A stretch of DNA of 15,420 nt from IMG/VR virus record IMGVR_UViG_2547132271_000004, one strand, 5' to 3'. Position numbers and translations under genes: made by a program. Positions 3,696-14,959 of the stretch are shown here, in pieces. How positions within the stretch are numbered: the first letter of the stretch is position 1; the number at the start of each line of letters is the position of its first letter. The notes beneath the pieces are model-generated. The model had not been told where the DNA came from, ran no database searches, and saw only the letters and a list, made by a program, of their open reading frames with translations. Source of the stretch: a virus (taxonomy: Duplodnaviria; Heunggongvirae; Uroviricota; Caudoviricetes).

Positions 3696-3790
3696 AATTT
3701 GCTCCTGCCATAACGTGAAGAAGCAATGACCTGGCGGTCTGTGACTTCCCTACGCTGGCATTATCCAGATCAGGTGATACGGGTATTTCT
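3696..3790 (-). promoter_or_regulatory. thiM leader with the 3' portion of the TPP (thi-box) riboswitch and expression platform; the 5' half of the aptamer appears to be missing
   Basis: Minus-strand sequence AGAAAUACCCGUAUCACCUGAUCUGGAUAAUGCCAGCGUAGGGAAGUCAC followed by the SD and AUG matches the E. coli thiM thi-box as recalled. Upstream of it (plus 3791 onward) the sequence becomes AT-rich and unrelated to the expected P2/P3 and CUGAGA segment. Confidence 0.7.
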
Positions 3791-3856
3791 TACTAATTCC
3801 TGTTACTAGTTGATAATAAATAAGTTTTTAAGAATGCATAAATTAAAAACCTCAAA

Positions 3857-3880
3857 ACTGACCACACAACTGACCACACA
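3857..3880. repeat. Perfect tandem duplication of the 12-mer ACTGACCACACA
   Basis: Read directly: ACTGACCACACA at 3857-3868 and again at 3869-3880, immediately upstream of a CGAACAA-rich stretch. Confidence 0.9.
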
Positions 3881-4260
3881 TTTCGTTGAAGCTCTACGAA
3901 CAACGACGAACAATAACAAACAAAAGGGAAATTTGCTGGGGGTTTTGCGTAACCGTTATCATTTTCCGGCTATCCGTCATGAAGCTGGTGGATGATCTGC
4001 GTGGTGATTTCCACCATTCAGAGCAGGGGCGGTCATCATGACCATGCCATAACAAAAACCCCATATTCGTGGGTTTTCTGTGTTGTGGCTATTCTGCCGT
4101 TGCCGTGCTGGTGGATATTTCCGGTATGTGGCTCACCATATCGGCATCAGGCCCACCAGCGTGAAGCGTTTTTCATTTTTCGCGGGTATAAAAAATCGAT
4201 GGGGCTGGCAGTCCGGAAGACGTCAGGGTACAGAGATTTGACCCGCCCCTCCCTGTGCAT

Positions 4261-11083: not shown

Positions 11084-11590
11084 ATGAATTTAAGCGCAAT
11101 GGTATACCCTGATACTTTCATAATTAATGGCGAATCATTCAGAGGTAAAAGAAACGCAAAAGAAAACAAGGTATTAATTCCATATACAAATGAACCGGAA
11201 GTAACTATTGGTCAACACATTATCCAGCGTGTCGGTAAAAACGAGATAAATCTAAAAATTATAGATATGAAGTTGCTTCCCAATGTAACCCGCAGACAGG
11301 GAACCAATCATCAAAATATGTTGACTCTCTATATTGAAAATATCACGGGAAATGAACATATGACGCCAACTAAAAGTAATACATTTAACATTGGTTCAAT
11401 TAGTGGTGATCAAGTGCAGATAGGTGAGCATAACCATATGCTGGTAAACATCAGCATCACTGAACTGGTTGAAAAAGTCGCTAAATCGGGGGATGTACAA
11501 GCCAAATCAGTATTAAAGCAGTTACTGGAAAACAGTACCGTTGCCAGCATTGTTGGGGCTGGCGCAAGTGCCCTAATAGGCTTACTGTAA
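11084..11590 (+). CDS. Hypothetical AT-rich cargo protein with C-terminal hydrophobic Gly/Ala-rich segment; function unknown
   Basis: 168-aa ORF with RBS AGGA before the ATG and its own terminator. It is the only plus-strand gene in the island and is visibly AT-rich relative to flanking genes (not computed). C-terminus STVASIVGAGASALIGLL is hydrophobic. No family recognised. Confidence 0.7.
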   Translation: MNLSAMVYPDTFIINGESFRGKRNAKENKVLIPYTNEPEVTIGQHIIQRVGKNEINLKIIDMKLLPNVTRRQGTNHQNMLTLYIENITGNEHMTPTKSNTFNIGSISGDQVQIGEHNHMLVNISITELVEKVAKSGDVQAKSVLKQLLENSTVASIVGAGASALIGLL

Positions 11591-11627
11591 AAAAATGGCC
11601 TGGATTTTACCAGGCCTTTATTATTTT
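11591..11627. terminator. Bidirectional intrinsic terminator
   Basis: AAAAA-T-GGCCTGG-ATTTTA-CCAGGCC-TTTATTATTTT; a GC stem flanked by an A-run and a T-run, placed between the convergent 11084-11590 (+) and 11626-11922 (-) genes. Confidence 0.7.
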
Positions 11628-11922
11628 ACCGTTTCACGGGATCTCGCATTCTGCGCCTTATTTTCCACAGATATTCGATCATCGCTTCCACCTGCTCACG
11701 GTTGGTTGCGAAAATTTCCCCGGTCAGTGAGCTACGCAGAAAATCATGATGATCCACAACAAACAACGCATCGGAAGAAAGCAGACGGCGATATTTTTTT
11801 GCTGTCATGGTTTCCAGATCATCAAAATCATGAAACTTTTTATGTTGCTGGACTTCTTCAAATGTCACTGGAATGTCCCCTCTGTTGTCGCTAAAACGGT
11901 ATGTTGTCCCCGTACGGATCAT
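11626..11922 (-). CDS. Hypothetical protein
   Basis: 98-aa ORF ending at the bidirectional terminator. It overlaps the SSB 3' end by 32 nt, so the real start may be internal. No family recognised. Confidence 0.45.
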   Translation of the reverse strand: MIRTGTTYRFSDNRGDIPVTFEEVQQHKKFHDFDDLETMTAKKYRRLLSSDALFVVDHHDFLRSSLTGEIFATNREQVEAMIEYLWKIRRRMRDPVKR

Positions 11923-12316
11923 CGTGCTGACCCGTCTGCTGTTTTGCCCTGTTCAGTGCGTCAGTGGCCTGCCCCTGCTGGCCTTTTTTGCCGCCCGGTC
12001 GCGCTGTTCGCGCACTGATCACGCTGTCTGCGATAACCTGCCAGCCCTGCCGCGTTTCGCCGTTCTGGCCTGTCCACTGGCTTACCTGCATGTTACCCGC
12101 CACGCTCACCAGTTCGCCTTTGTGGTGTTTTGCCAGTGCGTCGGCCTGTCTGCCAAACGCCAGGACGGATAACCACATCATCGCCGTTCCGTCATCTGCC
12201 TGGCTGCACGGAAGGGGGACCGCCATACTAGCCATCGTCATTTGTGTACCCTTGCTGGTGGTCTTTAACTGCGGGTCAGCCACCAGCCGCCCGTAAGCCG
12301 CTATCTGTGCTGTCAT
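11891..12316 (-). CDS. Single-stranded DNA-binding protein (SSB-like OB fold) with SSB-type C-terminal tip
   Basis: 141-aa product aligns by eye to the E. coli SSB OB core (MWLSVLAFGRQADALAKHHKGELVSVAGNMQVSQWTGQNGETRQ vs [44 protein letters not shown]). It has a Gly/Gln-rich linker and ends DDPYGDNIPF, like the host SSB tip DDDIPF. Confidence 0.75.
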   Translation of the reverse strand: MTAQIAAYGRLVADPQLKTTSKGTQMTMASMAVPLPCSQADDGTAMMWLSVLAFGRQADALAKHHKGELVSVAGNMQVSQWTGQNGETRQGWQVIADSVISARTARPGGKKGQQGQATDALNRAKQQTGQHDDPYGDNIPF

Positions 12317-12558
12317 GCTGTCTGCTCTCCGGTTTTAACGTTGATGGTTGTCACCTGTTCCGCTTCGGCAATCTCCCGTTCTGTCAGCGTGGCAAAGTTT
12401 GCAGCTGCCGTTGTCATGAATGCGCTAATCAGTTCGGGAAGTGCTTTCGCATATCCTTCCCCGGCGTTGCGGTCGATGATTTTTATCGACACCCTTAACC
12501 AGTGTTCCGTCAAATCAAGGGCGTGCGATTGTGATTTTTTTGTGTGCTTCGCTGTCAT
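12313..12558 (-). CDS. Hypothetical small protein adjacent to the origin
   Basis: 81-aa ORF whose stop overlaps the SSB start (ATGA). No family recognised. Confidence 0.45.
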   Translation of the reverse strand: MTAKHTKKSQSHALDLTEHWLRVSIKIIDRNAGEGYAKALPELISAFMTTAAANFATLTEREIAEAEQVTTINVKTGEQTA

Positions 12559-12603
12559 AGGCTTTATCTCACAGCAGTAAATTAAAATTTTTGCGTTTTA
12601 ACC

Positions 12604-12832
12604 CTTCACCTGTTCACCTTTTGATATTTTCCATTTAAATTCATACTGTTAAGGGGTGAACAGTTTCACAAAAACTATTCACCAACTGTTCACCACTGTT
12701 CACCCTTGAAGCTCAATAAACAACCAAAAAGGTGAACAGTGAATAGTTTGGTGAACAGTTCATAAATAACTGTTCACCCTATAATATACTGATATAAAAG
12801 ATAATTATGACAGGGTGAACAGTGGTGAACAG
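12604..12832. repeat. Iteron-type replication origin: about nine copies of GGTGAACAG in both orientations flanking an AT-rich segment
   Basis: GGTGAACAG or its complement CTGTTCACC read at about 12611, 12655, 12686, 12696, 12731, 12750, 12770, 12814 and 12824. AT-rich spacer ATAATATACTGATATAAAAGATAATTATGA at 12781-12812. It sits immediately 3' of the primase-helicase gene. Confidence 0.7.
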
Positions 12833-12845
12833 TTATTCAATAAGT

Positions 12846-14663
12846 TTAATTTTTGCTATCGTCATTAGTGACCGATACACATGATGGCATCCAGTCTTCT
12901 GATTCCTCCGTCAGTGTCACGTTTGAACGAAAACCGTGCTTCGTTTTCCGTTTCATATACTCCCTGCCATATTCCGCCATTGCCCCCGGCATATCTTTAC
13001 CGAAGCGCGTCAGTGTTACAGGTTTACCAAACCCATGTGCCCTCATATAAGCCAGATAGGCATGATAGAGATACCTGCGTGGGCTGAATGGCACAATTTC
13101 AGCATTACCCACTAACAGGCCATCACACATTACCGACGCCATGAGATAGCCGCAGAAGTCCACCAGCGAATCCCCCTCTCGCTTTATCGCCAGTGCTTCT
13201 TCAGATTTCTGCTGCTCATATAACAGGCGTCTGGCTTCGTCCTGGTCAGCAAACCGTGTAAGCAGATGGCGAATCACTACCGCCAGCTCACCTTCTATTT
13301 TTTCCGCCAGCATTGGATCGCGTTCGTTCTCCGGTACAACTTCCGAAAAATTGAATATCACCCGACGACGTGAGATCCCCCCGCTGCGGTCACTGAATGA
13401 CATGGCGTTATTGTTAACCGCCAGCACTACTGCCGGAATACGCGTTGAGTAGGGGGCTTTGTGTTTCGGGTCAATTGCCACCTTGTCACCGCCTGTAATA
13501 GCCTTAATCCCTGCCCCATCACCAGCGTAGCGGGTCATATCCGGCATGATAATCAGCGAAAAGCCAACCACTAACGCGCGTTCCCTTGCATCTTCCAGCG
13601 CCTTCATGCTTGCCGATACTGTGTTGGCCTTACCCGCCAGCATGGTGCAAATCTCCGCCATCACGCTTTTACCACTTCCCCCTGGACCTGTTACCTCAAT
13701 GAATAACTGCCAGTCGTACCGGTTCGCCAGCACCATGAATAATGCAGCCAGTACGCGATCCGCCTTGCGGTCATTCTCAGCCACCGAACGGCGTAACCAC
13801 TTCCAGAAATTCGGCGCATGTGTTGCCAGCGTTTCCCCCTCTGCTGGTGGGCTGAAAGGTAATTCACTGGCAATTAACAACCAGTCGTTTTTGTTATGCT
13901 CCCGAAAATTACCTGTTCTGGTATCAAATACCCCGTTACTGAATCCAATCAGGTTACGGGCTGTATTCCCCATTACAGGCAAACTTAACTTCATGGTATC
14001 GACCGCCGATTTAATGGCGTTCTGCGAATAGCTGATCTCCGCATCAATGAAAATCTGTGCCATAGCTCGCTGTAATTCTTTATCCTGTACTGGCTCCCAT
14101 ACAACGCCGTTGTAATGGTGAACAGTGTCAGAGTCAGCATGAATCGCCAGTTCACCGCCATAATGTGCCAGGAGAACTTCGCCGCGTTGACTTGCTCCCA
14201 TCTGGTTAAGCGCCAGTGATGAAGCGTTATCGTCTTTTACCCGCTCTTTTTTCTTTACAGGCAGTTCAACTACCTTTTTCTTTTCCGCCTGCTCTGCCCG
14301 TTCACGTTCCAGATATTCGCGCCAGTTCTCCCGTTTCTGGCTGTGCATTCCTTCAGGGTAATAATCAGCATCCCTGACACCTGCCACTGCCAGTTTCTGC
14401 CCGATGGTATTAACAAGCCCCGGACGCAATAACCCCGCCTGATAGAGACGCACGCGATAGCGTCCGTCCGGTACGATTTGCAGGTTGTCCAGTTCGGCAA
14501 GTTGTTGCTCTCCAAGCCAGACAGGTGGCACGTTATCGCCAGCCAGTCGCCCGTCCTGTTCCTGCCACTGTTTCGCATGTGCCCACGCATCACTACCCGC
14601 AAAAATGATGACTTCCGTCATTTTGTCACGCGGCTGGTGTTTTAAATTTGGCGCTTTTTTCAT
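12846..14663 (-). CDS. Primase-helicase / replication initiator (P4-alpha / D5-type C-terminal P-loop NTPase)
   Basis: About 605 aa from MKKAPNLK (ATGA overlap with the upstream gene; RBS GGAGAG). Walker A VTGPGGSGKS and Walker B-like LIIMPDM, with a D5_N/primase-C-like central region. Confidence 0.85.
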   Translation of the reverse strand: MKKAPNLKHQPRDKMTEVIIFAGSDAWAHAKQWQEQDGRLAGDNVPPVWLGEQQLAELDNLQIVPDGRYRVRLYQAGLLRPGLVNTIGQKLAVAGVRDADYYPEGMHSQKRENWREYLERERAEQAEKKKVVELPVKKKERVKDDNASSLALNQMGASQRGEVLLAHYGGELAIHADSDTVHHYNGVVWEPVQDKELQRAMAQIFIDAEISYSQNAIKSAVDTMKLSLPVMGNTARNLIGFSNGVFDTRTGNFREHNKNDWLLIASELPFSPPAEGETLATHAPNFWKWLRRSVAENDRKADRVLAALFMVLANRYDWQLFIEVTGPGGSGKSVMAEICTMLAGKANTVSASMKALEDARERALVVGFSLIIMPDMTRYAGDGAGIKAITGGDKVAIDPKHKAPYSTRIPAVVLAVNNNAMSFSDRSGGISRRRVIFNFSEVVPENERDPMLAEKIEGELAVVIRHLLTRFADQDEARRLLYEQQKSEEALAIKREGDSLVDFCGYLMASVMCDGLLVGNAEIVPFSPRRYLYHAYLAYMRAHGFGKPVTLTRFGKDMPGAMAEYGREYMKRKTKHGFRSNVTLTEESEDWMPSCVSVTNDDSKN

Positions 14664-14959
14664 TTCTGCTCTCTCCACGCGGCAATCATGTTTTTTAGTT
14701 CCTGTAGTTTTTTATCAACATCCATACATGACACATGGTTATTTCTGGAAAGCGGGATTTCCCGACTGAATCTGCTAATAAAGATCTCCACGTTCAGCGA
14801 ACTAAGAAATGAATAGCCATCACGGATAAAATACACACGGTCAAACATCAGTTCTTTTACCGTTACTCTGTTACCGTTCTTATCCAGATAAATAGCGCCG
14901 GGGATAATTTGGGGGTGTGCATAACCGCTGGCAGTCAAGCCAGATAAATACGTTCTCAT
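14660..14959 (-). CDS. Hypothetical protein (AT-rich cassette gene B)
   Basis: 99-aa ORF with RBS GGGGA upstream. Its stop overlaps the primase ATG. Visibly AT-rich. No family recognised. Confidence 0.55.
   Translation of the reverse strand: MRTYLSGLTASGYAHPQIIPGAIYLDKNGNRVTVKELMFDRVYFIRDGYSFLSSLNVEIFISRFSREIPLSRNNHVSCMDVDKKLQELKNMIAAWREQK

Follow-up and report, generated by a model that had tools for sequence, protein, structure and literature searches.

An ssb (single-stranded DNA-binding protein) gene in the replication module of a capsid-forming PICI of Escherichia coli

Judged by its sequence, the product of an ssb gene carried by a chromosomal island of E. coli is a genuine member of the bacterial-type SSB (single-stranded DNA-binding protein) family and part of the replication module of a capsid-forming PICI (cf-PICI). 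The gene occupies positions 11891..12316 on the minus strand (141 aa plus stop) of the window, i.e., of the whole stretch of 15,420 nucleotides analysed here (virus record IMGVR_UViG_2547132271_000004), and its product probably assists the replication of the island itself. At this level the finding is already known: in each of the genomes inspected the product already bears the name single-stranded DNA-binding protein in RefSeq, and the gene represents a known type of accessory gene that is annotated correctly. What is added here is that its lineage is distinct from the host SSB, that its ancestral C-terminal tip has been kept under selection while the linker in front of it was swapped, and that the gene adjoins a putative iteron origin and accompanies five families of replicases.

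Satellites are usually described by their integration, regulation, replication and hijacking, with the replication module drawn as rep (or pri-rep) plus ori. The island SSB would be a third and widely conserved component of this module, found in a third of the complete genomes of E. coli. Should it enhance the replication of the island or select host partners via its tip, this would help to explain how PICIs replicate efficiently beside a replicating helper.

A capsid-forming PICI between thiM and rcnR

The island has a size of 14.9 kb and resides in the E. coli chromosome between thiM and rcnR. It is flanked by a 53-bp direct repeat (52/53 identical) with copies 14,910 bp apart, one at 3854-3906 of the window and the other at 21765-21817 of the compared locus L001, the right copy being situated just past the integrase gene and beyond the right end of the window. 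The left copy is only about 43 nt away from the thiM TPP riboswitch, which indicates that the island was inserted just upstream of the thiMD leader. The riboswitch itself (3729-3811, minus strand, 5' of thiM) reaches 37.5 bits against Rfam RF00059 and thus stays below the gathering score of 54.3, which is why a search of the whole window against Rfam at gathering thresholds gave no matches. A separate 14-nt match, ATACGGGTATTTCT, lies at window position 3777 inside the riboswitch and is found again close to the island's opposite end.

At an identity of 99.7%, the window is matched by strain SMS-3-5 and by many others, and the capsid and backbone gene calls used here are those of the PGAP annotation of this 99.7%-identical SMS-3-5 island. 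Read from the thiM side, the latter comprises genes for the large and small terminase subunits, an HNH protein, a head-tail connector, the portal, a prohead protease and the major capsid protein, followed by a convergent 168-aa gene, the operon in which ssb stands between ORFs of 81 and 82 aa, and a primase family protein, and finally, towards rcnR, by DUF4222, an Icd-like protein, an HTH regulator, DUF6387 and a tyrosine integrase. Of these, the genes for the integrase and the HTH regulator lie, going by the SMS-3-5 locus, beyond the right end of the window, and no tail genes are annotated by PGAP in the SMS-3-5 island. The architecture reported for cf-PICIs consists of int, alpA and rep together with genes for capsid, protease, portal, connectors, HNH, TerS and TerL on a tail-less element of about 15 kb (bioRxiv 10.1101/2022.09.08.507074). 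The island combines the backbone and the putative iteron origin with its own capsid and terminase set without tails, a length of about 15 kb and attachment-site repeats, and is accordingly identified by its architecture as a capsid-forming PICI and hence a phage satellite. The original prediction that the SSB is satellite-encoded is thus borne out by the 14.9-kb island, the 53-bp repeat and the cf-PICI gene set.

Identity of the ssb gene product

The ssb ORF starts with an ATG that is preceded at a distance of 10 nt by a GGAG Shine-Dalgarno sequence, encodes 141 aa and has its stop codon within 11891-12316; PGAP gives the product as single-stranded DNA-binding protein. The C-terminus of the protein reads QHDDPYGDNIPF, and its final ten residues are DDPYGDNIPF, so that the ORF and the C-terminal residues originally predicted are exact on the minus strand. 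An identical copy of the ssb DNA is found in E. coli ST648, and across 4.4 kb the ssb region is 99.7% identical to that of SMS-3-5, where the protein is WP_000126652.1.

With respect to family membership, the protein scores 57.3 bits against the Pfam family PF00436 SSB (gathering score 26) and 59.5 bits against TIGR00621 (cut-off 53.95), and matches the PHROG family phrog_44 (single strand DNA binding protein) with E = 8e-38. A sequence search of the PDB with this protein retrieved 27 solved SSBs and one weak unrelated match. The expected alignment of the core with E. coli SSB, for which the query sequence was verified to be exactly that of PDB 1eqq_A, does exist, but it is a distant one (25% identity over 100 residues, E = 9e-9). 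With an identity of only 25% in the core, a recent duplication of host ssb is ruled out as the source of the gene. A protein of some other family with a tail resembling that of SSB by chance is likewise ruled out by the Pfam and TIGRFAM scores, which both exceed their cut-offs, by the predicted fold, and by the conservation of the tip throughout the family.

OB-fold core, linker and C-terminal tip

Residues 1-103 (12008..12316, minus strand) correspond to an OB-fold ssDNA-binding core, as delimited by an AlphaFold2 model, Foldseek, sequence alignment and dN/dS. In the model, a monomer prediction computed from 37 family members, the block means of pLDDT are 80-91 for residues 1-100. All of the best 50 Foldseek matches in the PDB are bacterial SSBs, with E values from 1.7e-9 to 1.5e-7 and TM-scores, normalised to the target, of 0.65-0.81; among these best 50 matches, the predicted OB fold therefore resembles solved bacterial SSBs only, and the structure prediction and alignment proposed as a check on the original prediction have both come out in its favour. 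Three of the four aromatic residues of E. coli SSB that stack on ssDNA are kept, W54, F60 and W88 of the latter aligning with W48, F54 and W81 of the island SSB, and these three residues are invariant across its close family. However, at the position of the fourth, W40, the island SSB has Gln, and at that of the tetramer-interface residue H55 it has Leu; since neither W40 nor H55 is kept, the binding mode and the oligomeric state are uncertain, which has to be counted against the explanation favoured below. Codon comparisons with other islands gave a dN/dS of 0.13-0.25 for the OB core, which is under purifying selection.

The core is followed by a short, basic and Gln/Gly-rich linker (residues 104-131; 11924..12007, minus strand), defined by pLDDT, alignment and pN. 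For residues 104-141, comprising linker and tip, pLDDT is below 50, and the linker is predicted to be disordered. It shows indels among close relatives and has in some of them been replaced by an unrelated linker, e.g., by GNRRKTTGTQGNQPPAGG instead of GKKGQQGQATDALNRAKQQTGQH. Within the linker, the segment ATDALNRAKQQ coincides with a short helix predicted at low confidence for residues 116-129; the segment is kept in one linker type and missing from the other, and could be a second interaction motif. Among the few islands compared, ATDALNRAKQQ did not track the type of replicase, and a co-variation of linker type and replicase type was not seen, as the locus L005 has a DUF5906 primase like that of the window and yet carries the other linker.

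The tip itself, DDPYGDNIPF (residues 132-141; 11894..11923, minus strand), is a variant of the SSB-Ct according to alignments and pN. When compared to the host sequence PMDFDDDIPF, it has in common with it the aromatic residue at -7, Asp -5 and the terminal I-P-F (-3 to -1), and differs from it at two positions, -6 being Gly and -4 Asn where the host has Asp; the resemblance to the host tip that had been pointed out originally is thus that of a mild and conserved variant. Due to Gly -6 and Asn -4, the affinity for host partners may be lower or shifted. The 120 database clusters closest to the island SSB are 71-97% identical to it, and nearly all of their full-length sequences end in D-x-[Y/F/W]-x-D-x-I-P-F, Asp -5 and the terminal Phe being invariant and position -4 being occupied by N, G, E, D or S. 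An exhaustive HMMER search against representatives at the 50% clustering level yielded 5769 relatives at E <= 0.001, and a terminal Phe is present in 67 of the 112 top 50%-identity representatives of at least 120 aa, with the consensus P-F-D-D-x-[I/L]-P-F; tips of other Enterobacterales read PPFDDDIPF (Edwardsiella), PPFDDETPF and QAYDDQIPF.

Alignment and codon comparison further show that the tip persists where the linker has been swapped: against the three islands with the alternative linker (L002, L005 and L016), pN is 0.45-0.5 for the linker and 0.04-0.08 for the last ten codons. From these comparisons the tip can be regarded as the ancestral SSB-Ct motif of a lineage of short SSBs that has been kept under selection, of which the form PYGDNIPF of the E. 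coli islands is a slightly derived version with a lower acidity at -6 and -4. A disordered linker followed by an acidic tip ending in [I/L]-P-F is a feature of the SSB family that the island SSB possesses, and because the island SSB is only 25% identical to the host SSB, its tip is an inherited hallmark of this family as a whole and not a mimic of the host.

The clients of the SSB-Ct in E. coli include the chi subunit of the Pol III holoenzyme, PriA, DnaG, RecQ, ExoI and others. It is conceivable that the island SSB hijacks such partners or, as the original prediction had also considered, competes for them, mainly titrating ExoI, RecQ, PriA or chi from the ssDNA of host or helper and thereby biasing replication towards the island, modulating the SOS response or interfering with the helper. 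In line with this, the residues for the partner pocket, namely I-P-F with the terminal carboxylate and Asp -5, are all kept, the tip is conserved independently of the linker, and for an SSB-like protein of a phage whose tip is FDDDIPF, a perturbation of host ssDNA processing has been proposed (bioRxiv 10.64898/2026.04.29.721553). Yet the prototype cf-PICI leaves the yield of its helper phage unreduced (bioRxiv 10.1101/2022.09.08.507074), the constant position of ssb on the origin side is explained more simply by a role in replication, and no feature of the sequence tells recruitment from competition, so that competition for partners seems rather unlikely to be the main function of the protein.

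The ssb operon and the putative origin of replication

In the operon, ssb is preceded by an ORF of 81 aa (phrog_1231; 12313..12558, minus strand) whose function is unassigned. The TGA stop of this ORF and the ATG of ssb overlap by 4 nt in the form of ATGA, which suggests a translational coupling of the two genes. Out of five islands compared, three have a homologue of the 81-aa ORF 5' of ssb and two have unrelated small ORFs at this place, and although the 4-nt overlap is present in all five, the 81-aa ORF is thus not supported as an obligate partner of ssb.

The last gene of the operon, as defined by PHROG match and island comparison, is an ORF of 82 aa (phrog_1957; 11626..11874, minus strand). 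It is unrelated to the genes that follow ssb in other islands (L002-L005 and L015-L017), which code for either a regulator of the PerC family or an RNA-binding protein of the ProQ/FinO family, and this place in the operon seems to hold variable cargo. A GC-rich hairpin resembling a bidirectional terminator (11597..11616) ends the ssb operon as well as the 168-aa gene that converges on it (phrog_5789; 11084-11590, plus strand). The latter gene, for which neither a Pfam match above the cut-off nor a PADLOC match was found, lies between the replication and the capsid modules, which is the typical position of accessory genes in PICIs.

Upstream of the operon, the 287-bp gap that separates it from the primase-helicase gene harbours a cluster of ten GGTGAACAG iterons (12600..12850), nine of them exact and one with one mismatch, arranged in both orientations around AT-rich stretches. 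In the whole window, GGTGAACAG has 17 matches as compared to 3.2 expected, a number reached in none of 200 shuffles. An inverted pair made up of one further exact copy and one further copy with a single mismatch is located within the primase gene (14117-14156). The adjacent gene (12846..14678, minus strand) encodes the replicase of the island, a primase-helicase with D5_N, DUF5906 and Pox_D5 domains and the C-terminal region of P4-family primases. Origins of PICIs are situated 3' of rep (PMC6092414), and in agreement with this layout the iteron cluster is likely to be the origin of the island, with ssb located 243-544 bp downstream of it.

Distribution and genomic contexts

Of 5426 complete E. 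coli genomes, 1815 contain DNA homologues of ssb, with up to six of them per genome, and 2361 of the 2363 places matched in this species lie on the chromosome; among the matches listed, all that cover the gene in full or in part are annotated as SSB. The genomic context was surveyed in nine hand-picked loci (L001-L005, L015-L017 and L010 from Edwardsiella), i.e., seven chromosomal islands or island-bearing fragments of E. coli, one circularised island of Klebsiella filed as a plasmid and one island of Edwardsiella; a single-protein scan of public genomes yielded only nine loci, and the census across taxa is accordingly thin. In all nine contexts, the element carrying ssb is an island with the order int-HTH-Icd-DUF4222-replicase, both capsid-forming and classical PICIs being included, and ssb is the first, second or third gene past the replicase and an intergenic gap of about 190-410 bp.

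Two of these loci are recorded as plasmids. The first (L004, NZ_CP033626.1), a circular "plasmid" of 22.9 kb from Klebsiella pneumoniae, contains a single integrase, a primase-helicase, ssb and PerC, while its block of HTH, antA/antB and DUF4222 is duplicated at two positions, and looks like an excised or concatemeric PICI that became a plasmid in the assembly; the SSB encoded there has IPL at its end and not IPF. In the second (L005, CP088587.1), an E. coli "plasmid" of 32.6 kb, a complete cf-PICI is flanked by the chromosomal genes pntB and mdtJI, and it is probably a fragment of the chromosome that has been misassigned. A plasmid SSB as the source of the gene is ruled out, as the close matches inspected in the plasmid database are PICIs or chromosome fragments filed as plasmids. 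Nor is an acquisition from a helper phage supported, given that a search of the phage database returned no relatives from sequenced phages above about 35% identity. The island contexts and the lack of close relatives in phages or plasmids together argue that this ssb lineage is a core, island-borne part of the replication module of enterobacterial PICIs.

The constancy of the neighbourhood also bears on the idea that the protein might act in recombination, assisting a recombinase or an annealing protein in the circularisation or recombination of the island and not at replication forks. Many phage ssb genes do adjoin genes for annealing proteins of the Erf or Sak type, as is the case in the phage matches found here. 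However, the neighbour of ssb in the nine island contexts is always the replicase with its origin, and no gene for an annealing protein or a recombinase adjoins ssb in any of them, which renders a recombination accessory very improbable.

The replicases next to ssb are of five types, namely the D5_N/DUF5906 primase-helicase, a RepA-family helicase, a P4-family primase, a Zn-finger primase-helicase and DUF927. One might therefore speculate that the SSB of PICIs acts as a universal adaptor, the tip plugging unrelated helicase-primases into the host Pol III via chi without DnaB/DnaC, and that during infection by the helper it could in addition draw host SSB partners or SSB-sensing defences towards or away from the satellite. 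If this were true, the derived tip of the E. coli clade with its Gly -6 and variable -4 would tune which partners are engaged; as a whole we consider this scenario unlikely.

A possible role in island replication

Because ssb adjoins the origin, we favour a role in the replication of the island itself. The protein is probably an accessory booster that covers the ssDNA of the satellite, adds to the pool of SSB and brings in host partners via its tip. Its binding of ssDNA and of partners, its oligomeric state and any effect on island replication are inferences. The following order of events can be envisaged: upon induction by the helper phage the island would be excised, and its primase-helicase would open the adjacent iteron origin; the SSB, produced from the operon directly downstream of the origin, would then cover the exposed single strands via its OB fold, and its D-x-I-P-F tip would dock SSB-interacting proteins of the host, whose machinery would thereafter copy the satellite. 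The main benefit would probably consist in a larger pool of SSB at a time when the replication of helper and satellite together yields much ssDNA.

A function of this kind cannot be an essential one, as in the PICI EcCICFT073 the rep gene and the origin alone suffice to drive replication in E. coli (PMC6092414). In the literature searched, no functional study of an island SSB was found, SSB is not mentioned in the cf-PICI papers and the SatelliteFinder paper, and on the in-vitro requirements of P4 replication nothing usable was found.

Alternatively, the protein might protect the satellite, either by shielding its ssDNA from nucleases of the host or by blocking or decoying anti-phage systems that respond to foreign SSB or ssDNA. 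There are precedents for such a connection, since SSB genes occur in the leading regions of plasmids alongside genes for anti-defence and SOS inhibition (PMC11541004, PMC9849209), and since SSB-like proteins of phages trigger a reverse-transcriptase defence system. But PICI DNA enters the cell as packaged dsDNA, unlike the ssDNA transferred by conjugation, and the genes consistently found beside ssb include none for defence or anti-defence, its neighbours coding for PerC, ProQ/FinO or uncharacterised proteins. The PADLOC defence models, moreover, match neither the ssb product nor its neighbours, so that the gene was rejected as a member of a defence system and an anti-defence function must be viewed as distinctly unlikely. 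An accessory contribution to replication thus continues to be the preferred explanation.

Comparison with known systems

The chromosomal SSB of E. coli (P0AGE0; PDB 1eqq and 4mz9) belongs to the same PF00436/TIGR00621 family as the island SSB and shares with it the OB fold, the disordered linker and the acidic I-P-F tip. It has, however, 178 aa as compared to the 141 aa of the island SSB, the identity in the core amounting to 25%; the island linker of about 28 residues is basic and lacks the long Gly/Gln/Pro-rich region of E. coli SSB, the tip reads PYGDNIPF in the former and DFDDDIPF in the latter, and the island gene, unlike the chromosomal ssb, resides on a mobile island.

The phage SSBs of phrog_44, e.g., those of Staphylococcus phages encoded next to Erf or Sak genes, are likewise of the same Pfam family and PHROG. 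The best match to the island SSB in the phage database is nevertheless below 35% identity, suggesting that the lineage is island-borne and not common to sequenced phages, and the island ssb gene is without an adjacent gene for an annealing protein.

The SSBs of conjugative plasmids, such as SsbF of F and Ssb of ColIb-P9, also constitute an extra SSB on a mobile element. Their genes are found in the leading region together with psiB and are expressed from ssDNA promoters active on entry, and they can complement chromosomal ssb mutations (PMC9849209). The psiB/ardA setting and the close kinship with host SSB that characterise this class are absent from the island SSB, which is set apart from it by the 2361 out of 2363 chromosomal places, by contexts that are all islands and by the 25% identity to the host protein; tblastn with the island SSB retrieved no conjugative-plasmid SSB. 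Still, the SSB of a plasmid is dispensable and yet speeds the early replication of its element, probably via a larger SSB pool, and SsbF of the F plasmid shows co-localisation with host Ssb and is not required for transfer (PMC9849209). By analogy, SsbF may be taken as the best precedent for an accessory SSB that boosts the replication of its own element.

The closest counterparts are found in the PICIs themselves. Primase, SSB and DUF5906 genes of Gram-negative PICIs have been assigned to the category Replication and co-localise with the mapped origins (Mageeney et al. 2023, PMC10111431). The SSB genes of these PICIs and helper-embedded PICIs belong to the same gene class and occupy the same place as the island ssb; they were categorised in that study, tip, fold and function being left unanalysed.
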